Origin: Candidatus Babeliales bacterium
GTDB taxonomy: Bacteria; Babelota; Babeliae; Babelales; JANWKD01
Direction: 5' to 3'
NCBI GenBank assembly: GCA_963722075.1
Contig: CAVRJM010000001.1
Coordinates: 1,210,864-1,274,863, forward strand
Length of the DNA stretch: 64,000 nucleotides
The notes under the pieces were generated by a model that did no database searches, was not told the origin of the DNA, and saw only the letters and a list, made by a program, of their open reading frames with translations. Shown in pieces: positions 19,753 to 51,313 of this stretch (its first letter is position 1; every line of letters starts with the position of its first letter). A program made the translations under genes and the position numbers.

Positions 19753-19831
19753 ATATGTAAAGTAGCATTGTTATTAGTTAAATAATTAATATTAAATTGT
19801 CGAAACTCACCTTATAAAAAAAGGAGAAAAA

Positions 19832-23500: not shown

Positions 23501-26500
23501 TTGCCTTATCTTCAATATATGTCAAATTATTATGGTGCAAAAGGACCGGTATATGTAAATCCAAATGCTGATCCTACCTTAAACGGTGTTCAGGCGCAAA
23601 GTAATAACGCTTCTTATTTTGTGGTGACGGGTGACAATACCAAACAAACAGGAATTAATTTATTTTCTGATACCGCAAATTTTGGCAATTCAGATAATAT
23701 ACGTGGTTGGGGAATCACCAAAGTAGGATCCTCTGCGGCATTAACATTTGTTTATACTAATAATGATTCTTCAGGCCAAGCATTACGTGGCTCAAATACG
23801 GTAATGCAACTTAACGGATTTGATAATCAAGTGGAATTCCCCCTTGCAACTAATGCACCGCTGCCAACTAATACGGTGGCAAAACTTGTGTGGGCAGGTG
23901 ATACCGATTTATATCGCTCTGCCGCTAATACTTTACAGACAGATGGTAATTTAGTTGTTGGTAGCTTAACACCAGCGGGAGTGGTCCATAATAATAATAC
24001 CGGTTTACTATCTACTTCACTCATAGTAAATGCCGATATAAGTAACAGCGCAGGAATTACTGATAATAAATTAGCAACCATTAGTACACCAGGAAAAGTA
24101 GCAAACTCAGCAACCACCGCAACGAGTGCGAATGTTCCAAATACCATTGTATTGCGTGACGGTTCAGGAAATTTTGCAGCAGGCACTATTACGGCATCAT
24201 TAATTGGTGCTGCGTCACTGAACGTGCTGAAGACCGGTGACACCATGACTGGCAACTTATTAATGGCAAACCAATCACAACTGCAATTCCAGGATAGCAC
24301 GAGTGGTAATTATGTAGCGATAGATGCACCAACAACCGTAGCTGCTACTTATACCGTTAGTTTACCCGCAACGGCACCACTGAGCGGTCAAGTATTGCAA
24401 GCAACATCGCCAACTACCCTCACCTGGGCATCGGTAGGTGGTTCCCCTGCGGTTGCTAAAACATATTATGTTGCTTTAAATGGTAATGATAGCAATGACG
24501 GATCATTTGATGCGCCATTTAGAACCGTTGCGCATGCAGTGAGCGTAGCAAATGGGGTTGCAAGTAGCGCAAATCCTATTGAAATTAGTATTATTGGAGC
24601 AGGAATATTTATTGAAAATAATTCAGGAGGTCCAATTACCGTAACTGCTGAAGGTATAAATATTATTGGTAGTTCAAATCAAGCAACTATTATAATGCCC
24701 ACAACGGCGGCAAATGACCTTTTTAGTATAGTAGTTCCCTCAGCAAAATTTGAGGCTTTTCAAGTAGCGTTATCGGGAGTTGGGTCGACCGGGAATGCGG
24801 TTACGTATAATGCAGGTCCTATCGGTGTTGTTACTATCGATAGAGTTGCGGTAAACGGGTCTTTTAATAATGCTTTTGCAATAAACGCAACTTCTGGTAC
24901 TCCAACAATAATATTAAATAATATTTTATGTGGCGGCTGTGTTAATGCCATTTCGATTACTAATGCGCAATGCGTTATTAAAAATTCTATTTTTCAAGGA
25001 TCATTGACAGCAAGCCCAGCAAATAATGGTATAAGCATTACCGGAACGAATGCTATTGTATTTTGTCTGAGTAACGTATTTAAATTATTTGCTAATGCTA
25101 TAAGTGTAACGGGTGGTGCAAGTGTTCGCATCTTGGGATCTAATTTTGAATCTACTACTAATGGATTAGCTGCATTAGGAGATAGTAACTTAACGATTGT
25201 TGGTTGCAACTTCATACTTAATAATCCAAGCTCAATAAATATTGCAGCTGCAGGGGCAAATACTGCTATTACGGTAGATGGATGTCAATTTCAATGCAAT
25301 GATGCAACGGGCAATCCACAAGGGACGGCACTTAAAGTAACAACAGGTGCATCAATACTTGCCGTTGGATCTTCTATTACAAATGCTGTAGTAGGTATTC
25401 AATGTGGTACAGCGGGAGACGCCAATACCACCGTAATGCGTGCGAATGCTACTACTTTAATTGGCTGTACTACTGATATTGTACAAACAAGTAGTTCAGC
25501 ATTATTTTTTATTGGTGGGGTATTTGACTCAAATAAGTTATCTTTTGCAAATCCAGCAAATGTTAGTTTTAGCGCATTTGATAGAACAAATAATGATGCA
25601 TTGACGCTCGGCAATGATGCTGATACTAATCAAATGTTAATACAAGTTTTAAACGGTGAGTCACTATTTCCAAATTGGGCATATCGATCGAATTATTACG
25701 GTACTAAAGGAGTTGTTTACGAAAATCAAAATAGTGACGCAACCTTTAATGGCGTGCAAGCGCAAAGTAATAATGCATCATATTTTGTAGTTACGGGAAA
25801 TAATGCCGCTCAAGCGAGCATAAATCTTTTATCCGATACAGCAAATTTTGGTAACCCTAACTCCGAGAATGTTCGTGGCTGGAGCATTGTTAAAACAGGT
25901 ACATCTGCCGACTTAGCATTTACCTATACTAATAACGATTCATCAGACCAAGCATTGCGCGGTTCTAATACCGTGATGCAACTTAATGGTTTTGATAATC
26001 AAGTAGAATTTCCTATTGCAACTAATGCACCGCTGCCAACTAATGCGGTAGCAAAATTAGTATGGGCTGGAGACACCGATTTATACCGTTCAACTACAGC
26101 AACGTTAGCAACTGATGGTAATTTAATTGTTGGCGCATTAACGCCTGCTGGTGTAGTGCATAATAGCAATACAGGATTACTTTCTACCTCGCTAATTGTA
26201 AATGCTGATATCAGCCCAGCCGCTGGGATTACTGATGATAAACTGGCAACCATTAGCACACCAGGAAAAGTTGCCAATTCTGCTACCACCGCAACGAGTG
26301 CTGATACGCCAAATACCATTGTACTGCGCGATGGTTCAGGAAATTTTGCAGCCGGCGCTATTACGGCATCATTAATCGGTGCTGCATCATTGAATGTGCT
26401 CAAGACTGGCGACACGATGACCGGTAATTTATTAATGGCAAACCAATCGCAAATACAATTCCAGGATAGTACCAGCGGTAATTATGTTGCAATAGATGCA

Positions 26501-29500
26501 CCAACAACGGTAGCTGCAACATATACCGTAAGCTTGCCTGCAAATGCGCCAACAACAGGCCAAGTATTGCAAGCAACATCACCAACAACACTCACCTGGG
26601 CATCGGTAGGCGGCTCACCAGCAATAGCAGAAACCTATTATGTTTCCCTTGCTGGTAGCGATAGTAATGATGGGTCTTTCTCGGCGCCATTTAGAACGGT
26701 AACTCATGCGGTGAACGTAGCTAATGGCGTAGCTAGTCTTGCTAATCCTATTGTTATTAATGTGGGTGCCGGTAATTTTGTTGAAAATAATACCGGTGGG
26801 CCAATTATTATTTCTGCTGATGGCATTAGTATTGTGGGGGCTACGCTTGTAGCTACTACCATTATACCAGCAAGTAGTACTGTCGATTTATTTCATATAA
26901 CAACAGGCAATGTTGAATTTCAAAATATATCATTGACGACACCGTTTCCTGGCTCTACAGCAAGTGCCGTTGTTATTACTATTTCGTCGGGGACGCCCCA
27001 ATTTAATACTATAACAGTGGGGCAATTCCAAATGGGATTTGACTTAAGCAGCTCAGTAATAACAAACATTCCTACTGTGGTATTTGAAAATATGCAATGT
27101 GCCGGTAATGGTACGAATATTATAGCTAATAATATCAATGCGGTGATTAAAAATTCTGTATTCCAAGGGCCATTATTCTTTGGGAGTGCAGCAAATAACG
27201 GCATTATATTAACAGGTGCAAACACACAAGCATTAATTTTAAGTTGCGCATTAAAATCATTTGACAATGCGCTACAAATTACCAACGCTGCACAAGCACG
27301 AATTCTCAGTGTTGATATTGAAAGCTCTACCACAGGCATTTTGTGCAATGGTGTATCAGATGCTTCAATTATTGGTTGTAATTTCTTTATCAATAATGCA
27401 AATTCGATCAACGTAAGTGTCTCAGGAGCAGGTACCAATATTACAGTAGAAGGTTCTCACTTTGAAGGATCTCTTGCGGGTGATACGCCATTGGGTACTG
27501 CACTTCAAGTAATTAATGGAGCAGTACTTTCAGTTGATTCTTGTGCTATCGAAAATGTTGCGGTAGGAATTCAATGTGGTAATCCGGGTGATACGGTTAC
27601 CACATTCTTAGAAGCAAGCGGTGTCGTTCTATCTGGCTGTACGGTAGATATTCAGCAAAATGGTGCTTCAAAACTTAATTTTTTTAGCGGCGTAGTTGAT
27701 ATCGATAAAACATTTATAAACGACCCAACCAATGTGAGTATTGCTGCATTTAATGATCAATCAGAATTAGTAATAGGGTCAGGAGCTAATACTGAACACC
27801 TGCTTTATGAGGTGCTTAATGGTCAAGTGCCAAGACCAAGTCTTACCTATGAGCCGGATTATTATGGAAAAATGGGTACGGTATTTGTAAATAGTAATAC
27901 GGGACAAACATTTAATGCAACGCAAGCACAAAGTGATAATGCTGCCTATTTTGTAATTACCGGCGATAACACTAAAGAAGCAGGACTTAATTTATTTTCA
28001 GATACTGCAAATTTTGGTGATCCAGATAATGTACGCGGGTGGGGAATCATAAAAACAGGGACATCTGCCGATTTAGCATTTACCTATACTAATAATGATT
28101 CGTCAGGACAAGCATTACGCGGTTCTAATACCGTGATGCAGCTCAATGGCTTTGATAATCAAGTAGAATTTCCTATTGCAACGAATGCACCATTGCCAAC
28201 TAATACGGTAGCAAAATTGATATGGGCTGGAGACACCGATTTATATCGCTCAACTACAGCAACGTTAGCAACGGATAGTAATTTTGTGGTTGCGCAGAAC
28301 GTAACCATTTCAAGTTTAACACCGGCTGGCGTAGTGCATAATGATAATACTGGTTTGCTTTCGACATCATTAATTGTAGACGCCGATATTAGCGCAAGTG
28401 CAAATATTGCTGATACAAAATTGGCAACGATTAGCACGCCCGGTAAAGTAGCAAATTCCGCTACTACAGCAACCAGTTCAGATGTGCCAAATACTATTGT
28501 GCTTCGCGATGGGTTAGGAAATTTTGAAACCAACATGATTACCATTGATGGAACTGTTAGTAATCCAACTGATGTTGCAACAAAGCAATATGTGGATAAT
28601 GCAGTAACAACCGGATTTGTGGTAAAGACAGCTGCTTTAGTGACCAGCACCGTTGATGTTGCCATTAGTGGGTTACAAACAGTTGATGGTGTGATGCTGA
28701 CCACCAGCGATCGAGTATTATTAGTTGGGCAAACAGATGGCGTAGAAAACGGATTATGGCTCGCTGAAGTAGGAAATTGGATGCGCCCAACTGATTTTTC
28801 TAGTGGTACTTCGGCTGGTAATTCATATGTACTTACCCTTTCAGGTACCGTAAATGGCGGGTCCAGTTGGATTTGTATTACGCCAACATCAATTATAGAT
28901 ACTAATACGATAGAATTTACTCAATTTGCATTAGCAAGCCAAACTACCGGCGCCAATGTGGGAGCAGGTACGGGGCAAGTGTTTCAAAGTAAAACCGGAA
29001 ATGTGTTGAATTTCAGAACACTTCTTGCCGGAACTCATATGGTAATAACAACTGACCCAAATGATGTAGCAATCGCAACTGATGCAACAAGCGCGAATAC
29101 ACCAAATACGCTTGTGGCGCGTGATGCCTCGGGAAATTTTGCTGCCGCGACTATTACGGCAAATTTATCGGGTAATGCTTCAACCGCAACATCCGCCACC
29201 AATTTTACCGGGGCGCTTGCTGGTGATGTTACTGGAACACAAGGAGCAACGGTGGTAAATTTTGTGGGTGGGCAAAGTGCAGCCAATGTTTCTTCAGCAA
29301 CGGTAGCAGCAAATGCAGCAACCAATTCTAATACACCAAATACGATCGTATTGCGCGATGGATCTGGTAATTTCTCAGCAGGCACGATTACGGCAAATCT
29401 CACCGGAAATGTTACCGGGAACTTAACTGGTAATGCCACAACTGCAACTAATGCAACGACGGCGGTAAATTTCAGCGGTTCGCTAAATGGAGATGTAACC

Positions 29501-31789
29501 GGAACGCAAGGCGCAACGGTAGTGAGCAACGTTGGTGGGCAAAGTGCTGCAAATGTAGCGGCAGCTACGGTGCTTGCAAGTGCATCCACAAGTGCAGATA
29601 CGCCAAGTACTATTGTGCGCAGAGATGCATCAGGAAATTTCTCAGCTGGTACAATCACCGCAAATTTAAATGGTAATGCAACCACCGCAACTACGGCAAC
29701 TACTGCAACAACTGCCGGATCGGCAATAAATTTTACGGGATCACTCAGTGGCGATGTAACGGGTACACAGGGAGCAACGGTGGTGAGTTTTGTTGGTGGG
29801 CAAAGCGCAGCAAGCGTAGCAGCAGCAACGACATTAGTTGGAACGGCAACGAGTAATAATATTCCAAGCACCTTAGTATTGCGTGATACATCAGGGAATT
29901 TTAGTGCCGGCACGATTACAGCGAATTTATCAGGGAATGCAACCACCGCAACAACTGCAACCAATTTTACCGGATCGTTATCGGGTGATGTAACGGGCAC
30001 GCAAAGTGCTACGGTGGTAAGTACCGTTGGTGGGCAAAGTGCAGCAAATGTTGCTTCAGCAACGGTGGCAGCAAATGCAGCAACCAATTCTAATACAGCA
30101 AACACCATTGTAAAACGTGATGCGTCAGGAAACTTTAGTGCTGACACAATAACGGCAAATTTAACAGGTAACGTGACGGGTAATTTAAGTGGTAATGCCA
30201 CCACGGCAACAACAGCCGGATCGGCAACAAACTTTACCGGATCACTTGAAGGAGATGTAACCGGAACCCAAGGTGCTACGGTAGTAAGTTCAGTTGGTGG
30301 GCAAACAGCAGCAAACGTGGCAGCAGCCACCGTGCTTGCCAATGCTGCAACCAACGCTGATACGCCAAGCACTATTGTACGCCGTGATGCATCAGGTAAT
30401 TTTAGTGCAGGTACAATTACTGCAAGTCTAAATGGTAATGCTACCACAGCAACCACAGCAACTAGTGCGACAACGGCAACTACCGCAACAAATTTCACTG
30501 GATCACTGAGCGGCGATGTAACGGGAACACAAGGTGCAACGGTGGTTAGTTTTGTGGGTGGGCAAAGCGCAGCAAGCGTAGCAGCAGCAACGTCACTGGT
30601 AAATACTGCTACCAGCAATAATGTAGCAAATACCATTGTAAAACGTGATGCATCAGGAAACTTTAGTGCTGGCACCATTACAGCAAATTTAACCGGTAAT
30701 GCAACCACTGCGACAACAGCAACCAATTTTAGCGGATCGCTATCAGGTGATGTAACGGGCACGCAAGGTGTAACGGTGGTAAGTACTGTTGGTGGGCAAA
30801 GTGCCGCCAATGTAGCATCAGCAACGGTGGCAGCAAACGCAGCAACGAATGCAGATACCGCAAGCACCATTGTAAAACGAGATGCATCAGGCAATTTTAG
30901 CGCTGGCACGATCACCGCAAATCTTACTGGTAACGTTACGGGGAATTTGAGCGGTAATGCAACCACGGCAACAACAGCCGGATCGGCAACAAACTTTACC
31001 GGCTCACTTTCAGGAGATGTAACCGGTACGCAAAGTGCAACGGTGGTCAGTTCAGTTGGCGGACAAAGTGCGGCAAATGTAGCAGCAGCTACCGTACTTG
31101 CCAATGCAGCAACAAGTGCTAATACGCCAAGTGCTATTGTGCGTCGTGATGCTTCGGGGAACTTCTCTGCGGGTGTTATTACGGCATCGCTTACGGGTGG
31201 TGTACTGACGGGGAATTTAACCTTGCCAGCAGGAACGGCAGCAGTGCCATCATTACAATTTTCAGGAAGTACTAATACCGGTATATCAGCACCGGCAGCA
31301 AATACGCTATCACTTGATACCAATGGCACCCAGCGGTTGAGTATTGATTCCACCGGAAGTGTTACGTACCATTCCAATTATAAAATGTATGCTTATTTAT
31401 CATCAAATCAAACTGTTAATGATACTACCGCAACGATTATTTTTAATACCGAATTATTTGATACCAATTCTAATTATAATAATACTACTGGTGTATATAC
31501 GGTACCAGTGACGGGAGTTTACCTAGTTGGCGTTACGGTGAATACCCAATCTTCTCATTCATCAGGTGCAACCCAAACGGTGAATATTGGACTAAACGGG
31601 ACAACTCCAATAACAGGAGCTTCTGTTTCACAAATTTCAAACTCAAGTGCTCAAAAATTGCCGATGACTTTATGCATATTGCTTTCATTAACGGCTGGCA
31701 ATACTATTCAAGTTCAATATACTACAAATCAGGACGATACGATTCAGTCGGGTGATACGCATTTGGCGATTCATTTTATGTCATTCTAA
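20573..31789 (+). CDS. giant secreted fibre-like protein (3,738 aa) with tail-fibre-like repeats, three beta-helix modules and a C1q/TNF-like C-terminal domain
   Basis: A single open frame of 11.2 kb with a Sec-like N-terminus. The PNTIVLRDGSGNF motif occurs 13 times. YYV..GSD.NDGSF.APFRTV.HAV...VGAGIF.ENN occurs three times. The C-terminal pattern IIFNTELFDTNSNYNNTTGVYTVPVTGVYLVGV...TAGNTIQVQY...HLAIHFMSF is C1q-like. Confidence 0.9.
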   Translation: MQFFLLILLTFFVSLYSEGSLKELSSQNSFIEIGVVRAPRPSTTEGGFIGLAGLFTTTPSITEIENIVFNSGFIQGPIASTIDAVPRFANTTGNLLKNSLVLVDDAGNITINGITKNGNTVSWPSIVGAAGTFLGSDGVGNLIYSTPVGSGNVSTALPFTTNDAITTVDILSGSHDIKQTSVTIDSSDNINGINSLNANVVNAPALNGNATSATTAGSFTGVLAGDVTGPQSATVVNFVGGQSAANVAAATVLANAATSSDVPNTLVLRDGSGNFETNMITIDGTVTNPTDVATKQYVDDAVLTGFVIKAPAVAYGASNITLSGLQTIDGVALNSNDRVLLNAQTNPVQNGLWLAQVGAWTRPADFASGTQAERSYVLITLGTVFEGSSWVCATPNAIIDTDPITFIEFSLPNQTTGANVGVGQGQIFQSKTGNTLNFRTILAGPHIVVTNDPNDVMISTDATNADTPNTIVLRDGSGNFSASTITAALTGAASLNVLKAGDTMTGNLNLALQSQLRLQDSTGSGSYVGLDAPAVVPVSYTVNLPASAPTTGQVLQATSPTALQWATVGGSTISEAYYVELSGSDANNGSFSAPFRTVAHAVNVANGVASLANPIVIHVGAGIFVENNSGGPITISADGISIVGSSNSGTTIVPTSLTNDLFNIAAANVEFDNFTISISNSTSTGNAITLSTSSAGLATFNTITIIGAFNNGFNLSTSVGSSSVAFNNILTGGCTTAISLNNMQCVIKNSLFQGSLTTTPANTGFSITGTNSIIYVLGSLLRLCNTALSITGGANIHVIGTTIESSINGIVANGGSIVEMVGDNFSFNSPSSINVFASGANTNVTVDGCQFACADMAGNSQGTAVQATNQGTILLVGSSIEYAVLGIQCGAVSDTSATSIRANATTLIGCTTDIQQLGSSTFRFVGGVFDVNKISIANATNVTFAAFDRTNNETLALGSNADTNQTLFEVLNAQPTLPYLQYMSNYYGAKGPVYVNPNADPTLNGVQAQSNNASYFVVTGDNTKQTGINLFSDTANFGNSDNIRGWGITKVGSSAALTFVYTNNDSSGQALRGSNTVMQLNGFDNQVEFPLATNAPLPTNTVAKLVWAGDTDLYRSAANTLQTDGNLVVGSLTPAGVVHNNNTGLLSTSLIVNADISNSAGITDNKLATISTPGKVANSATTATSANVPNTIVLRDGSGNFAAGTITASLIGAASLNVLKTGDTMTGNLLMANQSQLQFQDSTSGNYVAIDAPTTVAATYTVSLPATAPLSGQVLQATSPTTLTWASVGGSPAVAKTYYVALNGNDSNDGSFDAPFRTVAHAVSVANGVASSANPIEISIIGAGIFIENNSGGPITVTAEGINIIGSSNQATIIMPTTAANDLFSIVVPSAKFEAFQVALSGVGSTGNAVTYNAGPIGVVTIDRVAVNGSFNNAFAINATSGTPTIILNNILCGGCVNAISITNAQCVIKNSIFQGSLTASPANNGISITGTNAIVFCLSNVFKLFANAISVTGGASVRILGSNFESTTNGLAALGDSNLTIVGCNFILNNPSSINIAAAGANTAITVDGCQFQCNDATGNPQGTALKVTTGASILAVGSSITNAVVGIQCGTAGDANTTVMRANATTLIGCTTDIVQTSSSALFFIGGVFDSNKLSFANPANVSFSAFDRTNNDALTLGNDADTNQMLIQVLNGESLFPNWAYRSNYYGTKGVVYENQNSDATFNGVQAQSNNASYFVVTGNNAAQASINLLSDTANFGNPNSENVRGWSIVKTGTSADLAFTYTNNDSSDQALRGSNTVMQLNGFDNQVEFPIATNAPLPTNAVAKLVWAGDTDLYRSTTATLATDGNLIVGALTPAGVVHNSNTGLLSTSLIVNADISPAAGITDDKLATISTPGKVANSATTATSADTPNTIVLRDGSGNFAAGAITASLIGAASLNVLKTGDTMTGNLLMANQSQIQFQDSTSGNYVAIDAPTTVAATYTVSLPANAPTTGQVLQATSPTTLTWASVGGSPAIAETYYVSLAGSDSNDGSFSAPFRTVTHAVNVANGVASLANPIVINVGAGNFVENNTGGPIIISADGISIVGATLVATTIIPASSTVDLFHITTGNVEFQNISLTTPFPGSTASAVVITISSGTPQFNTITVGQFQMGFDLSSSVITNIPTVVFENMQCAGNGTNIIANNINAVIKNSVFQGPLFFGSAANNGIILTGANTQALILSCALKSFDNALQITNAAQARILSVDIESSTTGILCNGVSDASIIGCNFFINNANSINVSVSGAGTNITVEGSHFEGSLAGDTPLGTALQVINGAVLSVDSCAIENVAVGIQCGNPGDTVTTFLEASGVVLSGCTVDIQQNGASKLNFFSGVVDIDKTFINDPTNVSIAAFNDQSELVIGSGANTEHLLYEVLNGQVPRPSLTYEPDYYGKMGTVFVNSNTGQTFNATQAQSDNAAYFVITGDNTKEAGLNLFSDTANFGDPDNVRGWGIIKTGTSADLAFTYTNNDSSGQALRGSNTVMQLNGFDNQVEFPIATNAPLPTNTVAKLIWAGDTDLYRSTTATLATDSNFVVAQNVTISSLTPAGVVHNDNTGLLSTSLIVDADISASANIADTKLATISTPGKVANSATTATSSDVPNTIVLRDGLGNFETNMITIDGTVSNPTDVATKQYVDNAVTTGFVVKTAALVTSTVDVAISGLQTVDGVMLTTSDRVLLVGQTDGVENGLWLAEVGNWMRPTDFSSGTSAGNSYVLTLSGTVNGGSSWICITPTSIIDTNTIEFTQFALASQTTGANVGAGTGQVFQSKTGNVLNFRTLLAGTHMVITTDPNDVAIATDATSANTPNTLVARDASGNFAAATITANLSGNASTATSATNFTGALAGDVTGTQGATVVNFVGGQSAANVSSATVAANAATNSNTPNTIVLRDGSGNFSAGTITANLTGNVTGNLTGNATTATNATTAVNFSGSLNGDVTGTQGATVVSNVGGQSAANVAAATVLASASTSADTPSTIVRRDASGNFSAGTITANLNGNATTATTATTATTAGSAINFTGSLSGDVTGTQGATVVSFVGGQSAASVAAATTLVGTATSNNIPSTLVLRDTSGNFSAGTITANLSGNATTATTATNFTGSLSGDVTGTQSATVVSTVGGQSAANVASATVAANAATNSNTANTIVKRDASGNFSADTITANLTGNVTGNLSGNATTATTAGSATNFTGSLEGDVTGTQGATVVSSVGGQTAANVAAATVLANAATNADTPSTIVRRDASGNFSAGTITASLNGNATTATTATSATTATTATNFTGSLSGDVTGTQGATVVSFVGGQSAASVAAATSLVNTATSNNVANTIVKRDASGNFSAGTITANLTGNATTATTATNFSGSLSGDVTGTQGVTVVSTVGGQSAANVASATVAANAATNADTASTIVKRDASGNFSAGTITANLTGNVTGNLSGNATTATTAGSATNFTGSLSGDVTGTQSATVVSSVGGQSAANVAAATVLANAATSANTPSAIVRRDASGNFSAGVITASLTGGVLTGNLTLPAGTAAVPSLQFSGSTNTGISAPAANTLSLDTNGTQRLSIDSTGSVTYHSNYKMYAYLSSNQTVNDTTATIIFNTELFDTNSNYNNTTGVYTVPVTGVYLVGVTVNTQSSHSSGATQTVNIGLNGTTPITGASVSQISNSSAQKLPMTLCILLSLTAGNTIQVQYTTNQDDTIQSGDTHLAIHFMSF
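21359..21973 (+). repeat. module A, copy 1 (205 aa) of the giant gene
   Basis: PNTLVLRDGSGNFETNMITIDGTVTNPTDVATKQYVDDAV...DRVLLNAQTNPVQNGLWLAQVGAWTRPADF... It is repeated at 28487-29101 with the same length. Confidence 0.85.
21974..28486 (+). repeat. three tandem B units (721, 724 and 726 aa) of the giant gene
   Basis: Unit boundaries fall at 21974, 24137, 26309 and 28487. They were set by the in-frame PNTIVLRDGSGNF motif. The units are diverged but collinear. Confidence 0.85.
28487..29101 (+). repeat. module A, copy 2 (205 aa) of the giant gene
   Basis: PNTIVLRDGLGNFETNMITIDGTVSNPTDVATKQYVDNAV...DRVLLVGQTDGVENGLWLAEVGNWMRPTDF... Confidence 0.85.
29102..31126 (+). repeat. eight short tandem units (78/89/87 aa) with a 254-aa higher-order period
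   Basis: Counted unit lengths are 78,89,87,78,89,87,78,89 aa (675 aa, 2025 bp). The consensus is xxTIVxRDxSGNFSAGTITANLxGN..ATTAT..NFTGSLSGDVTGTQxATVVSxVGGQSAANVAxATV.ANAAT. Confidence 0.85.
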
Positions 31790-33249: not shown

Positions 33250-34563
33250 TTGATTATTGATTATGCGAGCTCTTTAGTGCCAATAGCGGACTGCAAAAAA
33301 CGGTTTGATACGTTATTGCCTGAAATTAATATCTGTAAAAAGATTATACAAGATCTTGATTATTCTTCTGGATATTCGTTTCTTAACTTGCCGCAACAAA
33401 ACATAAAACCGATTATAGAAACAATTAATCAAAAAAAAGCATTAAAGCCGTCACTGCTCATTGTTATAGGTATTGGTGGGTCAAATTTGGGAACATTGGC
33501 GGTGCAGGAAGCATTATATGGAAAATTATATAATGATAGTAATCCAGAAATAAAAATATATTATGCCGATACGGTTGATACAGAATATATGACCGCTTTA
33601 CTAACGATAATGGAAAGCTACTTATCTCAACAAAAAGTAATCTTATTAAACGTGGTAACTAAATCAGGAACTACTACCGAGACGGTTGCCAATTTTGAGG
33701 TATTACTGGAGGTATTAATTAAATACTATCCAACTAATTATCGTGATCATGTAGTAGTAACAACTGATAAAGATTCATTATTGTGGAATAAAACAATGGA
33801 AGAAGGATATACGCTTCTAGAGATACCACGCTTTGTTGGTGGTCGTTATTCAGTATTAAGCGTCGTTGGTTTATTTCCATTGGGGATGATCGGATGCGAT
33901 ATACAACAATTGCTCGCTGGGGCTCAATCGATGCTTGATCGATGTACTTCTGCTACTTTTGAAGAAAATAAGGCGGCAACTACCGCAACTATTATGTATG
34001 AACAATATAAGCAATGCATTACAATACAAGACATGTTTTTATTTGTACTACAATTGGAAGGCTTGGGAAAATGGTATCGACAATTAATGGGTGAAAGTAT
34101 CGGCAAAGAATTTGATAAGCATGATAATAAGGTTGAAATCGGCATAACGCCTACGGTGTCAATTGGTTCAATTGATTTACATTCGGTGGGACAACTTTAT
34201 TTAGGTGGTCCACATGATAAAAATAGTACTTTTGTTTCAGTCGAAAAGCACAAGAATAATCTTCTGGTACCAGCTGATGCTTCATTTGATACCTTGGTTC
34301 CGGGCATTAATAATAAATCTTTTGCTGAAATTATGGATGCTATTTTGCAAGGCGTAAAAAAGGCATACCAAAAGCAACGAAGACCATTCATATCGATAAC
34401 ATTATCTGAATGCAATGAGTATTATATAGGTCAATTTTTACAATATAAAATGATAGAAATGGTGTATTTAGGTTACTTACTCAATATAAATCCTTTTGAT
34501 CAACCAAACGTAGAATTATATAAAAAAGAAACGCGTACCATTTTAAATAAAACAATTGTTTAA
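33250..34563 (+). CDS. pgi: glucose-6-phosphate isomerase (short bacterial/archaeal type)
   Basis: 437 aa. Motifs include IGIGGSNLGTLAV, VVTKSGTTTETVANF, GGRYSVLSVVGL and GQLYLGGP. The start is an apparent TTG. Confidence 0.85.
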   Translation: MIIDYASSLVPIADCKKRFDTLLPEINICKKIIQDLDYSSGYSFLNLPQQNIKPIIETINQKKALKPSLLIVIGIGGSNLGTLAVQEALYGKLYNDSNPEIKIYYADTVDTEYMTALLTIMESYLSQQKVILLNVVTKSGTTTETVANFEVLLEVLIKYYPTNYRDHVVVTTDKDSLLWNKTMEEGYTLLEIPRFVGGRYSVLSVVGLFPLGMIGCDIQQLLAGAQSMLDRCTSATFEENKAATTATIMYEQYKQCITIQDMFLFVLQLEGLGKWYRQLMGESIGKEFDKHDNKVEIGITPTVSIGSIDLHSVGQLYLGGPHDKNSTFVSVEKHKNNLLVPADASFDTLVPGINNKSFAEIMDAILQGVKKAYQKQRRPFISITLSECNEYYIGQFLQYKMIEMVYLGYLLNINPFDQPNVELYKKETRTILNKTIV

Positions 34564-34679
34564 GTGTTTAAATTATTGCATACCCTTTATCTAACGATAT
34601 ACTCTTTTAATATTAAACAGGGCAAATGCATTAATGTTAAATATTTAAGCTAAAAAAATTAAAAAGTTTAATTTTTAAT

Positions 34680-34757
34680 CTGGATCCCCACGCTGCGCTC
34701 GGGACGACGATAGTGGAAAACAAAAGACGTTGTTGCGAGCTTGTCGAAGCAATCCAG
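34680..34757. repeat. GC-rich palindromic intergenic element (copy C, permuted arm order)
   Basis: CTGGATCCCCACGCTGCGCTCGGGACGAC-N20-GTTGTTGCGAGCTTGTCGAAGCAATCCAG. It lies between pgi and zwf. Confidence 0.65.
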
Positions 34758-34845
34758 CATTCTATTTAAACCTTTTGAATTCGATACTTTAAATGCGTTT
34801 ACACCCTGGTACTAATCATTAATTATTTGCAAAAATGAGTTTTGT

Positions 34846-36264
34846 ATGGGTAATACGGGAATAACTAATAACGATGGTTTATTTATACTATTTGGTGCTA
34901 CGGGTGATTTATCAAAACGACGAATTCTTCCAGCATTGTATGCATTAAGTTTTCAACATAAAATAGGAAACATTTCTATAATCGGGGTAGGGTTAGAAGA
35001 CCGCTCTTCTTTAGAAGTAATAAATGCAAGTAAGCAGTATATTGAACATCTGGATTCGGCACATTGGGCAGCTTTTGAATCTAGATTTTTTTACTATCAA
35101 ATGGATATAACAAAATCAACTGAATTTCAACAATTTAAACAATTTATTGAGCATCATGAAAAAGAGCATTCTTTTTTGGGTAATCGGTTGATATATTTAG
35201 CAGTTCATCCCAAATTTTTTGCGCCCATAACGCAACAACTAGCGCAAATAAATCTTATCCAAAAAATGGCAAACTTGTCTGATACACCTTGGTGCCGCGT
35301 TGCATATGAAAAACCGTTTGGCCTTGATAAAAAATCTGCTCATGAAATAAATGAAACCATCGCGCATTATTTGCAAGAATTTCAGATATTTCGAGTTGAT
35401 CATTATCTAGCCAAGGATATTATTGGCACTTTAGCTTTGCTACGCTTTACCAATTGCATTTTTGAGCCATTGTGGAATCATGAGCATATTGATTGGATTG
35501 AAATTGCATTAAGTGAGACAGTTGCAATGGGTGGTAGAGGTACTTTTTATGACGCCTGTGGTGCGCTTAAAGATGTAGTGCAAAATCATATGTTGCAAAT
35601 TGTTGCCTTACTTGCGATGGAAGCTCCTGAATTCTTGAGTGGTGATTACATTCGTGAACAAAAATCACTCATTTTAAAAAAAATTGAGCCTGTGGATGGT
35701 TTTCTGGCGCAATATGATGGATATAGAGTTGAAGATGGGGTAAGGCCCAATTCAACTACCGAAACCTTTGCAGCACTTAAATTATTAATTCATACACCGC
35801 GATGGAAAGATGTTCCGTTTTATTTAAGAACGGGCAAAGCATTAAACAAAAAAGAAACTATTATTACTATTCAATTTAAACCAGTTACCTGCTTATTAAG
35901 TACCAATTGCCCCAGCAATGCTGATTACCTTTCTATAAGAGTAATGCCTGAACCAGGATTTTCTATTATGTTAAATGTTAAAAAACCGGGTATGAAAATT
36001 GAAGTGATGCCAGTTGAAATGGATTTTTGTTATGAATGTAAATTTGGCGAAATACCCGAAAATGTATATCAACTAGTACTACAAGAATTATTTATAGGCG
36101 AACAAGGGATATCGGTGCGCTTTGATGAAGTTGAGCGTGCTTGGGAGATCATTGATAAGGTAAAAAAATTATCATTACCATTGTATCATTATGAAAAAGG
36201 CACTCAAGGGCCACGAGAATTGTATGAATTTGCTCAAAAAAATAAAATGAAATGGCGATTATGA
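34846..36264 (+). CDS. zwf: glucose-6-phosphate 1-dehydrogenase
   Basis: Motifs FGATGDLSKRRILPALY (NADP site), EKPFG and RVDHYLAKD (active-site RIDHYLGKE equivalent). Confidence 0.9.
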   Translation: MGNTGITNNDGLFILFGATGDLSKRRILPALYALSFQHKIGNISIIGVGLEDRSSLEVINASKQYIEHLDSAHWAAFESRFFYYQMDITKSTEFQQFKQFIEHHEKEHSFLGNRLIYLAVHPKFFAPITQQLAQINLIQKMANLSDTPWCRVAYEKPFGLDKKSAHEINETIAHYLQEFQIFRVDHYLAKDIIGTLALLRFTNCIFEPLWNHEHIDWIEIALSETVAMGGRGTFYDACGALKDVVQNHMLQIVALLAMEAPEFLSGDYIREQKSLILKKIEPVDGFLAQYDGYRVEDGVRPNSTTETFAALKLLIHTPRWKDVPFYLRTGKALNKKETIITIQFKPVTCLLSTNCPSNADYLSIRVMPEPGFSIMLNVKKPGMKIEVMPVEMDFCYECKFGEIPENVYQLVLQELFIGEQGISVRFDEVERAWEIIDKVKKLSLPLYHYEKGTQGPRELYEFAQKNKMKWRL

Positions 36265-37162
36265 AAATTGGTATTATTGGGCTGGGTAAAATGGGCAATG
36301 TGCTGGTGTATCGCTTAAAAAAAGCACACTTTGAAGTGGTGGGATTTGACCCTCAATTAAAAGCCCGTACTGCTATTAATAAATATGGTGCAAGCACTGT
36401 TTCTTCGATCGAAATGATTTCTGCGCATGCGCGCATTATATGGTTGATGGTGCCAGCTGGGGCCGCGGTTGATGCTGTTTTAAAAGAATTAGAGCCGCAT
36501 TTAAAAAAGGGCGATATTATTATCGATGGTGGTAATAGTTACTTTAAAGATTCAATAAAACATGCGCAGCAATTAAAAAAAAGGGAATTCATTTTATTGA
36601 TTGCGGCACTTCTGGTGGTCTTGCAGGTAAGAAAAAGGGTTTTTCCTTAATGATAGGAGGAGATGAAAAAATTTTTAATTATCTAGAGCCACTCTTTAAA
36701 GCATTAGCTGCTCCTAAGGGATATGGGTATATGGGCGATTCAGGTGCAGGGCATTACGTTAAAATGGTACATAATGGTATTGAGTATGCATTATTACAAG
36801 CATACGCAGAAGGATTTCATTTATTAAAAAATGGTTCTTATAAGGATTTAGATTTAGAAAAAATAACCGGCGTATGGGACCATGGTTCCATTATTCGTTC
36901 GTGGATTTTGCATTTGGCTCATGATATTTTTAAAAAAGATCAGCAATTGAAAGATGTGGTAGGCATAATACAGGAGAGTGGTATGGGGCAGTGGACGGTG
37001 GATGAAGCGCATGAAAAAAAGATTCCCGTAAAGCTAATCGAAGATGCTTTAACAATTCGTGCATGGTCACGTGAAACTGGTGGTGATTATGCTACTAAAG
37101 TGGTTGCCTTACTGCGGCATGCTTTTGGCGGACATGCAATAACAAAAAGGAAAAAGAAATGA
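36261..37162 (+). CDS. gnd: 6-phosphogluconate dehydrogenase (short YqeC/Gnd-like), reading frame interrupted at an A8 run
   Basis: The track splits it into 36252..36650 and 36650..37162. The N-part reads MKIGIIGLGKMG...IIDGGNSYFKDS and the C-part reads MIGGDEK...GAGHYVKMVHNGIEYALLQAYAEG. Reading one extra A at 36575-36582 gives LKKKGIHFIDCGTSGGLAGKKKGFSLMIGGDE. Confidence 0.8.
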
Positions 37163-37788
37163 AAATTATAGATATTAGTTGGCCGCTTTCAGAAAACATG
37201 ACGCAATATAAAGATGTAGATTTATTTTCAGCTACTCATATTACAAAGCCGACTAGTGGTGCGATGGAAACGCACGTTTCTCTTTCCTCTCATACCGGTA
37301 CGCATGTTGATGCGCCAGCGCATTTTATAGCAGATGGTAAAACAATTGATCAAATTCCCTTGCAACAATTATTAGGTGAATGCCGGGTGCTTGATTTAAC
37401 GCATGTAACAGAAAAAATTACCCATAATGATCTTGCTGCTCATGCAATAAATGAACATGAAATCATACTTATTAAAACCACTAATAGTTTCATTAGCTCT
37501 GTTGATCGTTTTAATCCGGCATTTGTATATGTAACAGCAGACGCAGCCCATTTTTTGGTAGCAAAGAAAATTAAAGCACTGGGCTTTGATTATTTAGGTA
37601 TTGAACGCAATCAGCCCGATCACCCGAGCCATAAAGCACTAATGATGGCCAATATTCCTATTGTTGAAGGGTTGCGGTTAGTGGATGTGAATGCTGGGAT
37701 CTATTTTTTTTGCTGTATGCCGTTATTATTACCCGGTGCCGATGCAGCACCTGCACGTGCTATTTTAATTGAAGATATCATTAAGTAG
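37159..37788 (+). CDS. cyclase-family metal-dependent hydrolase (kynurenine formamidase-like fold)
   Basis: SSHTGTHVDAPAHF is the family motif. The ATGA start overlaps the gnd stop. Confidence 0.75.
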   Translation: MKIIDISWPLSENMTQYKDVDLFSATHITKPTSGAMETHVSLSSHTGTHVDAPAHFIADGKTIDQIPLQQLLGECRVLDLTHVTEKITHNDLAAHAINEHEIILIKTTNSFISSVDRFNPAFVYVTADAAHFLVAKKIKALGFDYLGIERNQPDHPSHKALMMANIPIVEGLRLVDVNAGIYFFCCMPLLLPGADAAPARAILIEDIIK

Positions 37789-39255: not shown

Positions 39256-39993
39256 ATGAAAAAAATTGCTATTATTATTGGCTGCATATTAGTAATTACC
39301 ATACAGGCGAGCTTTCTTTCTGAATCTTTGATAGGTAAAAAAGAAAAAAATGAACTACAAAAGCTTCCTCTGCCCCATTATGAATCAAAAAAGTTTGATT
39401 TACAGGCAACATTGAAGGGTTTTAGCAAAAAACAAATTGACGAGCATAAAGAGCTGTATCAGGGATATGTTAATAAAAGAAATGAAATAACAGAGCGCTT
39501 ACAAGATGCTGATCGCTCACCTGCCAATAAAAGTTATTCATCATTCAGAGCTCTTAAGACCGCTGAAACGTTTGCTATGAATGGTGACATTTTACATCGT
39601 TTATATTTTCAAAATATGGGATCAACGGGCAAGAAAATAGGCCCAAAAACAGAAGAATATATTATAAAAAATTTTGGTTCTGTAGGTGCCTTCAAAGAGG
39701 ATTTGTTTGCTACTGCTAAAGCAGCACGCGGCTGGGCGGTAACTGCCTTTACTCCCGATGATGGACGCATTAATAATTTTCTTTTTGATACGCATAATCA
39801 AAAAGTTCCTGCACTTGCTATACCTATTTTAGTTCTTGATGTGTATGAACATGCATATATGATCGATTTTGGCATTAAAGTAGTCTCTTATCTAGATGTT
39901 TTTTGGGATAATATTAATTGGGACGTTATAGAACAACGCATGAATTTCATCGATAAGTACCATAATGTATGGAGCGAATATTTTATTGATTAG
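39256..39993 (+). CDS. Fe/Mn-family superoxide dismutase with signal peptide
   Basis: The metal-ligand context is conserved: IDEHKELYQGYV, NGDILHRLYF and LDVYEHAYMIDFG (the DVWEHAYY equivalent). The N-terminus MKKIAIIIGCILVITIQA is Sec-like. Confidence 0.8.
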   Translation: MKKIAIIIGCILVITIQASFLSESLIGKKEKNELQKLPLPHYESKKFDLQATLKGFSKKQIDEHKELYQGYVNKRNEITERLQDADRSPANKSYSSFRALKTAETFAMNGDILHRLYFQNMGSTGKKIGPKTEEYIIKNFGSVGAFKEDLFATAKAARGWAVTAFTPDDGRINNFLFDTHNQKVPALAIPILVLDVYEHAYMIDFGIKVVSYLDVFWDNINWDVIEQRMNFIDKYHNVWSEYFID

Positions 39994-40576
39994 TACCTGA
40001 ATCGTCTTTACAGCAAATCTTTAATAGTTGATGAGCCCATAACATTCTTTGGTCTCTAAAACTTTCATGACAATTAGGGCAGTTGAATATACTTTCATGC
40101 TTATGGTTAAAAATATGTTCATCGAATAGGGTCTGTTTGTAAAATTGTTTGGCACAGTAATGACAGACCTGTAATTTTCTTGTGGGCATAGTTTTTGTAG
40201 GTTTTTTGTATTTTCTTTTTGGCTTTGTTTGTGAAGCTACTTTCTTATTGGACGTTTTATTAATAATTAGTTTATTAACTGTTAGAATATGAGTCTTTTT
40301 TAGAATTGTGTCATTGAAACAGTTTGTTGATTGAGGTGATGGAGTTATAGTTTGATTTGATTTATTTTGTAACGGTCCAGTTGCAATGGGACTCAACATA
40401 GAATCATTTTGAATTGAAACCGGAGTTTGTGAGGGTACTGTAAAATCACTTAGAAATGGTAATAATGTAGCATCTTCTACCTTTTCTGCATCAGGAAATT
40501 CGTAAATCCAGGTTAAATTATCCATTGCTTCAAGATAACCGATAAAAAAGATTAGTATAAAAAAATTTTTTTTCAT
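39983..40576 (-). CDS. secreted protein with two eukaryote-type C2H2-like zinc fingers and a basic NLS-like patch
   Basis: It has a signal-like N-terminus. The basic patch is KPKRKYKKPTKTMPTRK. Finger 1 is C-x2-C-x12-H-x3-H (CHYCAKQFYKQTLFDEHIFNH). Finger 2 is CPNCHESFRDQRMLWAHQLLKIC. Confidence 0.7.
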   Translation of the reverse strand: MKKNFFILIFFIGYLEAMDNLTWIYEFPDAEKVEDATLLPFLSDFTVPSQTPVSIQNDSMLSPIATGPLQNKSNQTITPSPQSTNCFNDTILKKTHILTVNKLIINKTSNKKVASQTKPKRKYKKPTKTMPTRKLQVCHYCAKQFYKQTLFDEHIFNHKHESIFNCPNCHESFRDQRMLWAHQLLKICCKDDSGTNQ

Positions 40577-42058: not shown

Positions 42059-42141
42059 TGGATCCAGCCTTCGTTAATCCAGCCGCCGCTAACGTATAGG
42101 ATATTATTAATTAATGGATCCCCACGCAAGCTCGGGATGAC
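42059..42141. repeat. GC-rich intergenic repeat (copy D, composite)
   Basis: TGGATCCAGCCTTCGTTAATCCAGCCGCCGCTAACGTATAGG resembles the left part of copy E. TGGATCCCCACGCAAGCTCGGGATGAC resembles the arms of copies A-C. Confidence 0.55.
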
Positions 42142-47316: not shown

Positions 47317-47448
47317 GATACAATCGCTTTGCTCGAATAGAAGTTGAAAATAAAACGTCGTTACGATCCGCCCCATACTAAGATTTGGCGAATATGTCTT
47401 TGCCAAAACAATCCAGCTTAATATTACATCAATAAAGTGAATATTATA

Positions 47449-47624
47449 GCCTGGAGCCGCCTTCGCTAAATCCAGCCGTCGCTAAAGCTATGGCGGAGTA
47501 AACAGCTTCGACGCCCAGGTCCCCACGACGCCTTGTTCGCCGAAACCTATAGGTGAAGACTGGATCGGGACGACGATGGTCGAAAACAAAAGAACGTCGT
47601 TGCGAGCTTGTCGAAGCAATCCAG
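47449..47624. repeat. GC-rich intergenic repeat cluster (copy E, composite)
   Basis: The left part resembles copy D. The right part, CTGGATCGGGACGAC-N21-GTCGTTGCGAGCTTGTCGAAGCAATCCAG, is nearly identical to copy C. The 72-aa ORF 47444..47662 is an artefact of this repeat. Confidence 0.6.
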
Positions 47625-47695
47625 GAATATTTTAAACATCGATGACTTATTACTAATAACAATAATAACTAAAAACAAACACCAAAAACAATGCT

Positions 47696-47866
47696 TTAAC
47701 TGATTAATTGAGGTAATTCTTGCAAGGCTTCTTGAAACGGCATCACGGTAATACCGTCATGGTATTCTTTATGAGAACCTAAAAGCAAACAATATAATTT
47801 TGCTTGTGGGTAATCTTGGGCAAATTCTTTAAGGCATTGGGCGTAATGCACAATAAACACCAGCAT
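47696..47866 (-). pseudogene. possible C-terminal gene remnant (57 codons)
   Basis: Read by eye: MLVFIVHYAQCLKEFAQDYPQAKLYCLLLGSHKEYHDGITVMPFQEALQELPQLIS*. It begins inside a perfect hairpin (AAACACCAGCATCAAAAA/TTTTTGATGCTGGTGTTT). The family is not identified. Confidence 0.25.
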
Positions 47867-47983
47867 CAAAAAAATAGAATTTTTGATGCTGGTGTTTATC
47901 GTTTGGCTCGATGAGTAAAAGGAAAAATTCTATTTGCTAGTAGTAAGTCAAATTTGTTGGATTGCCTATCAAAAATTTAAAAT

Positions 47984-48619: not shown

Positions 48620-49147
48620 ATGGTTAAGTTCAAGGTTCGTATTAGCTTATTTTTGCTATTATTCATCTCTCTTTTTTCTAATACTTTTGCCATGTCGCGC
48701 TTAGGCGTGCTGAATATTTTCCAGCAAGGAATTAAGAAAATTATACCTTATAAATACACAATTTGTGCTGGAATAGGGTTAACTGGGGCAGGAATTATAG
48801 GTTATTTATTATATAACAAGTTTTATCAGTCCATAATGCTAAAACACATTACTTATACGTTAAATTTAAATATGCCTTATGAATATGGTAACGGTTATTT
48901 TTATACAAAAAGCACAGATCTCTTTAAAGGCAAACGTGAGGAAATTACCTTACAAAAATATATAAGTGAGTGTGACTATATTAACGTAGTTTTAAAAAAA
49001 CAACATGAACTGGATGAAATTGACTGGACATTTAGAAATCAATTTTATGGACGATATATAGACAATGATAAAGAGCCATCAGATGACTTTCATCTGCACT
49101 ATTTAACAGGACTTACGCATTGGTCGAAAGTTCTGATTGGGACTTGA
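48620..49147 (+). CDS. membrane hypothetical protein, 3' end fused to/truncated by an IS
   Basis: The last 14 codons (TGLTHWSKVLIGT*) are encoded by the left end of IS-c, beginning at its terminal inverted repeat. Confidence 0.5.
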   Translation: MVKFKVRISLFLLLFISLFSNTFAMSRLGVLNIFQQGIKKIIPYKYTICAGIGLTGAGIIGYLLYNKFYQSIMLKHITYTLNLNMPYEYGNGYFYTKSTDLFKGKREEITLQKYISECDYINVVLKKQHELDEIDWTFRNQFYGRYIDNDKEPSDDFHLHYLTGLTHWSKVLIGT

Positions 49148-50253
49148 AATAAATAAAAAAGGGTGCTTCAATTTTGTGAATTAAACAACAAAAGCAAAAA
49201 AGAAGGACACCCGAAATGAGAATAACAAATACAAATGAAGAATCAAGCACACCAAAATATGTAATGGGTTTATTAAAAACAACGGCACGAAAAGTTTGCA
49301 CAAATATTTCTGAAACACTGGGAATAATGCATGATGTGCTCAATAGGGAAGTTGAAAAAGCAGCCCAGAATGCAGCAGAAATAACAAGCTCATTACAAAA
49401 TGTTGCTCTAGAAAGTCTTAGCAATTGCGAAAGATATTTGATAATCGATGATACTCCCGTAAATAAGCAATATGCTAACGATATTGAAGGATTAGAAATT
49501 GTTTATGATAGTAGTGAGAAAAGATCAGCTTTGGGATTACGGTCTGTAATTGGCATGATCACTGATACCAGAGTAAGAATACCGATTGATGCGGAGATTA
49601 TGATAAGCAAAGTATTTGGAGAAACCAATTACAAGACAAAAAGTGAAATTGCTTACATTATTATAGAGCGTGTTCTAGGATCAATTCGGTTTAATTGGTT
49701 AATTGCAGATGCCCATTATGCGACTGAATACCTTCTGCCAAAGCTTTTTAACAGGTCAATAAAATTTCTGATGAAAATTCCCAGAAATCGCGTTGTTACT
49801 ATTAACAATAAAACAGGACAATTGCAAAAAATTTTACGTTTGAAAAAAAATAACAGATTTGCTTGTGGATACGGCACTATTTTTGGTCTTTCCTGTTATT
49901 TCTATGTGTTAAAAATTGATAAGGAAAAAATTATGTATCTTATCAGTAGCCATCAGCTCGGCAAAGAGAAGCTAATTTCTACATATAAGATTCGTTGGCA
50001 AATTGAATGCTTCAATAGAACTGCCAAACAACTTCTTGGATTCAGCGAATGCCAAATGCGTTCTTTTAACATGCAGCGTGCGCATTTACTTTTCGTGTTA
50101 TGGGCTTATGCTTTAGCCGACATAAGGCGGGTAAAAGATAATTTCGACAATACTGAACAAGCTGTCAGATCCTTTCGGGTCGCAAAACCCCCTACACCAT
50201 CTAGTTTATTTTATGCTTTTAAAGAGAACTCTTATGCTCTTGCGTAAGTCCTG
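49107..50253 (+). mobile_element. insertion sequence related to IS-a (copy IS-c)
   Basis: The terminal inverted repeats (CAGGACTTACGCA ... TGCGTAAGTCCTG) match those of IS-a. The flanking hexamers differ (ATTTAA vs TGAGGA), so there is no target-site duplication. Confidence 0.7.
49216..50247 (+). CDS. DDE transposase, IS4 superfamily (diverged paralog of 9498..10523)
   Basis: 343 aa. The Y-x2-R-x3-E-x6-K signature is present as YKIRWQIECFNRTAK. Confidence 0.85.
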   Translation: MRITNTNEESSTPKYVMGLLKTTARKVCTNISETLGIMHDVLNREVEKAAQNAAEITSSLQNVALESLSNCERYLIIDDTPVNKQYANDIEGLEIVYDSSEKRSALGLRSVIGMITDTRVRIPIDAEIMISKVFGETNYKTKSEIAYIIIERVLGSIRFNWLIADAHYATEYLLPKLFNRSIKFLMKIPRNRVVTINNKTGQLQKILRLKKNNRFACGYGTIFGLSCYFYVLKIDKEKIMYLISSHQLGKEKLISTYKIRWQIECFNRTAKQLLGFSECQMRSFNMQRAHLLFVLWAYALADIRRVKDNFDNTEQAVRSFRVAKPPTPSSLFYAFKENSYALA

Positions 50254-50637: not shown

Positions 50638-50976
50638 TTATCTTCCTCGTTGCATTGCAGCGGCATAACCAAATTCATTAAAATACTTTTGCCAAAATTC
50701 GTCAGTAAAAGAATATTGATTATCGTACATGAAGTAATCAATGAGGCATTCACGAGTGCGCAGTATTTCTTTAAGTCGTTTTCTATTTTTAGGATCAGCA
50801 ATTGTTAAATCTAACAATTCAATTACTCGTTCAAATGCAGATTGGCTATATTGAAGATCCCCTTTTTTTCTCCATTGGATTGTTCGCTCAACATCGCTCC
50901 CAATATTTGCTAATTGTTCCATAAGAGAGAACTTAAACCATCTGCCGGCTGCTAAGGTAGGATGATATACTTTCAT
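50638..50976 (-). CDS. conserved-looking hypothetical protein (112 aa)
   Basis: The ATGA start overlaps the stop of the upstream DUF5674-like frame. The protein is helical and charged. The family is not recognised. Confidence 0.55.
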   Translation of the reverse strand: MKVYHPTLAAGRWFKFSLMEQLANIGSDVERTIQWRKKGDLQYSQSAFERVIELLDLTIADPKNRKRLKEILRTRECLIDYFMYDNQYSFTDEFWQKYFNEFGYAAAMQRGR

Positions 50977-51313
50977 TTAATCACCAATTTATTAACGATA
51001 GTAATTATTTTTTTTCGAATTATTGGATCATCAATGTAACGGCTTCTATTATTTTGCGAAGGCCGAATATTTATCATAGAATCAAATTCTATCCAATCTT
51101 CAGAGGTTTTGAGGGGATAAATATTTATCCCCCAGAGATTTTCTTGTTGAGAGCCCATTTCTAATAGGAGTTCTTCTTGATCTGCATGAAGTCTGCATCA
51201 ACAACCATGATTTCTTTTTCAATATCAACAACAGCCTTTACCAAGTTGTTAAACATTTTGGATGCCATTGGCTTTAATTCTTCTAAGGAAATAGGTTCCT
51301 TGACAATATGCAT
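50973..51313 (-). pseudogene. DUF5674-like gene with a 1-nt frameshift
   Basis: The N-part (read by eye) is MHIVKEPISLEELKPMASKMFNNLVKAVVDIEKEIMVVDAD. The alternate frame continues LHADQEELLLEMGSQQENLWGINIYP...FDSMINIRPSQNNRSRYIDDP, which is the track ORF 50973..51158. The shift lies near 51185 and is not in a homopolymer. Confidence 0.6.

Follow-up and report, generated by a model that had tools for sequence, protein, structure and literature searches.

Single-base frameshifts in A/T runs of bacterial genes are known both as genuine mutations that are rescued during expression and as errors of sequencing. Insertions made during transcription cluster in stretches of A or T, and their frequency grows exponentially as these become longer (PMC5574713). 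At long poly(A) runs, corrected transcripts account for 12-50% in Buchnera and Blochmannia (PMC5009743). On the sequencing side, homopolymer calling in individual Nanopore R10.4 reads drops at lengths of 8-9, and MAGs at <40x need polishing (Sereika et al. [quoted passage not shown] For R10-only assemblies of AT-rich genomes, residual deletion-biased indels are documented (PMC13063785, PMC9262707).

The DNA analysed here, referred to as the window, is a stretch of 64 kb from an amoeba-associated member of the Dependentiae/Babeliales, in which gnd, a gene of the pentose-phosphate pathway, is split as assembled at a run of eight A's. The likely explanation is that an A9 was under-called as A8, so that gnd is intact in the organism and the interruption is not real. 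The true sequence at position 36575 would then consist of nine A's, of which the consensus of a long-read-only metagenome assembly gives eight. This under-count of one base would shift the frame and divide the 300-aa Gnd enzyme over two ORFs, and the same under-count would hit valS. A single cause, the reduction of A9 to A8, could thus account for the split in gnd, the split in valS, the in-frame A9 of the orthologues and the missing 9-runs.

The apparent interruption of gnd and its repaired product

The A8 homopolymer occupies positions 36575-36582 of the forward strand in the context CAGCAATT-AAAAAAAA-GGGAATTC, as read directly from the sequence, and is the site of an apparent 1-nt deficit. 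It overlaps the slippery heptamer A_AAA_AAA in the 0 frame (36574-36580, forward strand), with AGG next. The gene is predicted to encode a short-form decarboxylating 6-phosphogluconate dehydrogenase (36261-37162, forward strand) and is present as two ORFs as sequenced. The first (36261-36650) starts with the ATG at 36261 and ends in HAQQLKKREFILLIAALLVVLQVRKRVFP before the stop at 36648-36650, and the second lies in the -1 frame from about 36583 to 37162, or from 36650 to 37162 when counted from its first ATG. The product as sequenced is split at residue 107. Addition of one A yields a single 300-aa ORF (36261-37162) that reads ...AQQLKKKGIHFIDCGTSGGLAGKKKGFSLMIGGDE... across the former break. 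A sequence-only reading of the window had placed the interruption at this run and had proposed that one additional A restores 6-phosphogluconate dehydrogenase, which is borne out by the family match of the repaired product.

Judged by its sequence, the repaired protein is a full member of the short-form 6-phosphogluconate dehydrogenase family. It matches NCBIfam NF007161 with 380.4 bits (cutoff 271), with residues 1-297 aligning to profile positions 1-301 of 302, and TIGR00872 (gnd_rel) with 353.7 bits (cutoff 297.2). The two families differ in the cofactor that they name (NAD vs NADP), and the Gnd activity is a predicted one. The alignment with the structurally characterized relatives 6vpb, 4e21 and 8ihe (PDB) runs through the junction, and that with 120 homologues is gap-free, with 0 insertions or deletions; one of these homologues (P0005) matches the junction LKKKGIHFIDCGTSGG exactly. 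Among the columns of this alignment that are at least 95% conserved, 75 of 76 are retained. The core motifs of the family are present with their spacing, namely the N-terminal GxGxxG, DGGNS, DCGTSGG, GFSLMxGG and HxVKMVHNGIEY. In the comparison with the closest relative (L001), the part of gnd upstream of the break has a dN/dS of 0.21 and the part downstream one of 0.069, the latter pointing to strong purifying selection. The full-length family match, the gap-free alignment, the retained columns and the low downstream dN/dS together show no decay on either side of the break, in agreement with the earlier statement that gnd carries no other damage.

The deletion of two A's had been put forward as an equivalent repair, but this has to be abandoned: it gives LKKGIH, which is one residue short, and 0 of the 120 homologues are gapped at that column. 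Since the two-A deletion drops a residue that is present in every homologue, the addition of one A is the right repair. The k-mers CAATTAAAAAAAAGGGAATTC and CAATTAAAAAAAAAGGGAATTC are strings at the gnd site that are suited to read counting.

Gene neighbourhood and the state of the run in relatives

The gnd gene is tightly packed between its neighbours, with an ATGA overlap on both sides, as already described from the sequence. Upstream lies zwf, encoding glucose-6-phosphate dehydrogenase (34846-36264, forward strand; TIGR00871, 428 bits, cutoff 400.6), the stop of which (36262-36264) overlaps the gnd start at 36261. On the other side, the gnd stop (37160-37162) overlaps the start at 37159 of a cyclase/arylformamidase-like gene (37159-37788, forward strand), which matches TIGR03035 with 125.9 bits, below the cutoff of 223, and has syntenic genes in the relatives with the Cyclase domain PF04199. 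The upstream member of the conserved cluster is pgi, for glucose-6-phosphate isomerase (33250-34563, forward strand), with a match to NF010697 of 258.7 bits, below cutoff, and PF00342 in the syntenic genes of the relatives. The order pgi-zwf-gnd-cyclase is kept in L003, L091 and other relatives, where the wider conserved order is macro-pgi-zwf-gnd-cyclase and, further on, Fe-SOD.

The best Gnd homologues are found in metagenome genomes of Dependentiae/Babeliales, the group to which the source organism belongs, with the top match being 79% identical. At the orthologous site, the closest relative (L001, Logan SRR13203278; L002, ENA) reads TTA AAA AAA AAT and L003 (JGI) reads CTC AAA AAA AAA GGG, both with an in-frame A9, which is thus present in three independent assemblies (Logan, ENA and JGI). 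Three further relatives (L004-L006) read AAA AAA AAG AAA. The gene is in a single frame in all 120 homologues at the protein level and in the loci of six relatives at the DNA level. As assembled, the window gnd has exactly one A fewer than the 9-run of its closest relatives. This comparison of orthologous sites covers the DNA of gnd.

Truncated Gnd homologues with out-of-frame C-terminal tails do occur among the protein matches (P0134, P0140, P0159, P0178, P0217, P0233 and P0240). They are encoded on contigs of 77 kb to 1.56 Mb that come mostly from ENA assemblies, which suggests that a frameshift-split gnd is common in long-read metagenome assemblies.

The same defect in valS and the homopolymer runs of the window

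The valS gene (59007-61453, reverse strand) is divided into a 93-aa and a 717-aa ORF by an A8 run, seen as T8 on the forward strand (61179-61186). The site reads GAG AAA AAA AAG AAA TAA and contains a 0-frame A_AAA_AAG heptamer, followed by AAA TAA. One additional A gives an 815-aa ValRS reading ...VEKKKEISAHAMKRSEF..., which matches NF009687 in a single stretch with 984.8 bits (cutoff 738; residues 1-793) and is gap-free through the junction in comparison with 39 relatives. The earlier observation that valS has the same defect as gnd is therefore upheld. As valS is a single essential gene, its true loss would be lethal, and the valS defect cannot be that of a pseudogene.

The 64-kb window contains 101 A6, 31 A7 and 15 A8 runs, and 83 T6, 36 T7 and 15 T8 runs, while runs of at least nine A or T number 0 against 30 runs of eight. 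In the relatives, runs of nine make up 5 of the 24 runs of at least eight in short-read-type contigs (L001, L003 and L004) and 6 of 46 in Flye-type contigs. With nines thus forming 13-21% of the relatives' runs of at least eight, the probability of finding none among 30 in the window is 0.0009 to 0.015. Coding 9-runs that are in frame are normal in the clade. When one or two bases were added at each of the 30 A8/T8 runs, a long frame was restored at two, those of gnd and valS, and these repairs exceed chance. Each of the two run-associated frameshifts falls in the longest class of runs that the window has, those of eight, and is repaired by one more base. Among the approximately 250 A/T runs of 6-7, 0 lie at a recognised split gene; the add-a-base test was applied to the 8-runs only.

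Two further candidates were rejected. A third run-associated frameshift at 20126 does not hold, as a 134-aa ORF passes through that A8 in frame. A hard cap at eight in the assembly pipeline is contradicted by 9-runs in Flye-type contigs of the relatives, an A9 followed by GG included, and in a Logan contig of the source organism (L098), which has an in-frame T9 at 13562, in a part private to that contig and outside the window.

Sequencing platform and other copies of the organism

Contig naming, contig sizes and the ENA accession series point to the source assembly and run ERR10755947 both probably belonging to a Nanopore-only project based on Flye and Medaka, with no short-read polishing. The source contig exceeds 1 Mb, and relatives are found on contigs of 0.9-1.5 Mb that are named contig_N, in the ENA assemblies ERZ25039473 to ERZ25039540. 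These contig_N sequences agree at 100% identity with Logan contigs assembled from ERR runs, and the naming is the same as in the GTDB records of the Microflora Danica long-read MAGs. The long-read part of Microflora Danica employed Nanopore R10.4.1, Guppy sup, Flye and one round of Medaka without short-read polishing, with the long reads and assemblies deposited at ENA and the Illumina data at NCBI (PMC12313526, PMC12823411). According to the authors of that project, low-GC MAGs with many homopolymers >6 show a loss of coding density that is associated with Nanopore sequencing (PMC12313526). If the platform assignment is right, ERR10755947 is Nanopore as well, and its agreement with the window is a technical replicate, in which a systematic miscall would recur, instead of an independent check. 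Read technology is not a subject of the Logan paper, and a literature search returned no paper citing the run.

Exact-protein look-ups of the neighbouring genes recovered the source contig, contigs of ERR10755947 and a 1-kb NCBI contig (L008) only. The latter begins 290 nt downstream of the gnd site and so does not include the run. Over 20.7 kb, three Logan contigs from ERR10755947 (L007, L097 and L098) match the window with 100.000% identity and 0 SNPs, and the contigs of this run carry the same A8 at gnd and valS, as well as the frameshift in a DUF5674 gene that is described below. The window and L098 differ at one place. The window has a 1.15-kb IS-like segment (49107-50253) with a DDE transposase ORF (49216-50247), where L098 has 6.9 kb with about eight genes (6952-13832); the adjoining window ORF 48620-49147 (175 aa) corresponds to the 5' part of a 374-aa gene of L098. 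The difference has the appearance of a deletion variant, associated with an IS, between near-identical strains. Because of this structural difference, the ERR10755947 graph is taken to represent a slightly different population, probably from a different sample, and is probably a second read set.

Further searches for the same species returned no other allele. An exact pattern with A8-A10 at the gnd site gave 0 matches in GTDB genomes and JGI metagenomes, and a codon-degenerate pattern specific to the window Gnd likewise had no match. In a related-locus search of genome contigs, the universal HYVKMVHN motif dominated the matches, which were all distant Gnd genes. Exact look-up of the 129-aa N-terminal Gnd fragment gave no match, and junction-spanning peptides of Gnd and ValRS found no intact same-species allele in a collection of 5.8 billion protein clusters.

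Other features of the window

Outside the homopolymer runs, a scan for abutting open frames identified a DUF5674 gene (50973-51313, reverse strand) that is split by a 1-nt deficit near 51190, between GATGCAGA and CTTCATGCAGATC, which is not a long homopolymer. One additional base yields a product covering PF18924 positions 2-109 of 109 with 128 bits. The same split is present in L098; the gene may be a genuine pseudogene, or the consensus may contain an error linked to the motif. In L098, a DUF5122 beta-propeller gene (6915-8343) is split into ORFs of 277 and 197 aa at GGCAGCGGCTGCTGA, again not a homopolymer; here one base has to be removed (-1), and the gene lies within the segment that is deleted in the strain of the window.

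A short GC-rich intergenic repeat is dispersed over the window (19716-19754, 20266-20343, 34651-34769, approximately 42100-42140 and 47440-47636), with the sequence …TGGATCCCCACGC..GCTCGGGACGACG… and …GTTGCGAGCTTGTCGAAGCAATCCAG…. Its orientation is sometimes inverted, it is REP/MITE-like, and Logan contig ends fall within copies of it. A supposed multi-frameshift gene at 47400-47930 was rejected, as its open frames come from these repeats and a gene remnant. The 77-codon open frame at 47698-47929 (reverse strand), which has no Pfam match, is a putative C-terminal remnant of an AAA_14/DUF4143-type ATPase.

The window has several other ORFs of note. A giant ORF of 3738 aa (20573-31789, forward strand) has a GC content of 38-45% compared to about 33% around it, internal repeats of approximately 2.17 kb and 261 nt, and a C-terminal C1q domain (31 bits). 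The 780-aa antisense open frame inside it is presumably a by-product of composition. Two paralogous proteins of 1131 and 1261 aa (12024-15419 and 15582-19367, both forward strand) combine a right-handed beta-helix with a WD40 beta-propeller, and their 5' regions and upstream sequences are near-identical (95-97% over approximately 450 nt). A eukaryote-like C2H2 zinc-finger ORF of 197 aa is located at 39983-40576 (reverse strand). A tmRNA gene is found at 7093-7517 (forward strand; Rfam RF00023, 149.5 bits) with the tag peptide ANTVKSDVPAALFGSIQNSVFGAQAAACA, while no tRNA genes were found in the 64-kb window.

Explanations for the interrupted reading frames

The under-calling of an A9 is favoured because of the A9 in the relatives, the defect in valS, the absence of runs of at least nine from the window and the probably long-read-only assembly. 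The position of the run, the need for one base, the otherwise intact gnd, the in-frame A9 of the relatives and the lack of longer runs in the window are shown by the sequences, whereas the platform and the miscall at the level of the reads are inferred. Several observations count against this reading. The A8 is found at both sites in two assemblies, and it is real if ERR10755947 proves to be an Illumina or HiFi run. Runs of nine are present in contigs of the same type, among them an A9 directly before GG, and the R10.4 consensus is reported to resolve most runs <11 (PMC9262707). In addition, since the DUF5674 frameshift is not in a homopolymer and is common to the window and the Logan contig, the lineage may carry genuine frameshifts. 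Among the three options that the sequence-only reading had listed, under-calling by the platform is the one that gains. Transcriptional slippage is weakened by the small number of A's (eight), by the in-frame relatives and by the lack of a stimulatory structure, and recent inactivation fits gnd alone and not valS. That reading missed two points, namely -1 ribosomal frameshifting as a further route and the non-homopolymer frameshift in the DUF5674 gene near 51190.

A clearly less probable explanation, although one to be taken seriously, is that the A8 is real in the DNA of both gnd and valS, with full-length protein being produced by backward slippage of RNA polymerase, which would add an A to some of the transcripts, or by -1 ribosomal frameshifting on the slippery heptamer. 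The mutation would then have arisen recently by slippage and be rescued without programming, as described for the insect endosymbionts. Either route would give exactly ...LKKKGIHF... in Gnd and ...VEKKKEISAH... in ValRS. The two assemblies that share the A8 at both sites and the otherwise intact state of both genes fit with such a rescue, as does the fact that both sites are 0-frame heptamers of the X_XXY_YYZ type (A_AAA_AAA in gnd and A_AAA_AAG in valS), at which a -1 shift gives the protein of the A9 allele. The Dependentiae have AT-rich, reduced genomes and are host-associated, which is in favour of rescue. The same applies to other signs of decay in the lineage, which are the DUF5674 and DUF5122 frameshifts, the IS-linked 6.9-kb deletion and the unconfirmed DUF4143 remnant. 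However, eight A's are below the at least nine described for efficient bacterial slippage (PMC5009743), and a ValRS level of a few percent would strongly select for reversion, while mutation from A8 to A9 is frequent. Conservation of the frameshift is contradicted by the in-frame A9 of the relatives, and stimulatory elements are lacking. No significant RNA structure was found downstream of either site (fold z = -0.22 and -0.28 for gnd, -1.62 and -0.75 for valS), and on reading the sequence no Shine-Dalgarno-like element was seen upstream of either heptamer. Finally, rescue of two genes leaves the missing runs of at least nine in the window unexplained.

It is quite improbable that gnd is a genuine and very recent pseudogene, formed when an ancestral A9 truly lost one nucleotide, and is not rescued. 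Such an event would agree with long runs being the most mutable sites and with the further gene disruptions and the IS-mediated deletion seen in the lineage. Against these stand the 75 of 76 columns that are retained and the downstream dN/dS of 0.069, with no further decay, and the location of gnd in the pgi-zwf-gnd-cyclase cluster, which is translationally coupled and which the relatives have kept. Furthermore, the identical defect in the essential valS would need a separate cause.

Conserved programmed recoding, either a dnaX-like -1 shift or programmed transcriptional realignment that sets the level of Gnd or yields two products, is very hard to credit: the slippery heptamer is in the correct frame, but any deletion from A9 to A8 creates such a heptamer automatically, and the idea is unsupported because Gnd is single-frame in all relatives examined and there is no significant downstream structure.

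Implications

If the under-called A9 is indeed the cause, the gene calls of gnd and of valS should each be merged in the source genome, and the oxidative pentose-phosphate branch and ValRS should not be scored as missing. The 8-base A/T runs in the source assembly would then best be read as "8 or more". A different picture would emerge from real A8 alleles, a tentative scenario in which valS and gnd of one free-living-protist-associated lineage of the Dependentiae would be expressed only by slippage and/or -1 frameshifting. This would represent an expression-level rescue of frameshifts in essential genes outside the insect endosymbionts, and what is known from Buchnera and Blochmannia would then also hold for another phylum, at a shorter tract and in an aminoacyl-tRNA synthetase.

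Comparison with known systems

In -1 frameshifting of the dnaX type, as here, the slippery heptamer is in the 0 frame and the -1 shift leads to the full-length product; valS has exactly A_AAA_AAG and gnd A_AAA_AAA. The sites in the window differ in that they are not accompanied by a Shine-Dalgarno-like element, a significant stem-loop or conservation, and the heptamer is a by-product of the shortening of an A9.

The rescue described for Buchnera aphidicola and Blochmannia (Tamas et al. 2008, as reported in PMC5009743) resembles the present case in the AT-rich, reduced genome of a host-associated organism and in a frameshift that lies in an A run of an otherwise intact and needed gene, in which one additional A in the mRNA would restore the frame. 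In contrast, the tracts are long in those organisms and eight A's here, and the apparent frameshift in the window is not kept in related lineages.

Homopolymer indels in Nanopore-only assemblies (PMC9262707, PMC12313526) differ from the window in that the platform is known there and inferred here, and in that ERR10755947 gives the same A8. The likeness lies in a single-base deficit that falls in the longest class of runs of a low-GC genome, in otherwise perfect genes with several housekeeping genes affected, and in a Flye-style contig of >1 Mb.
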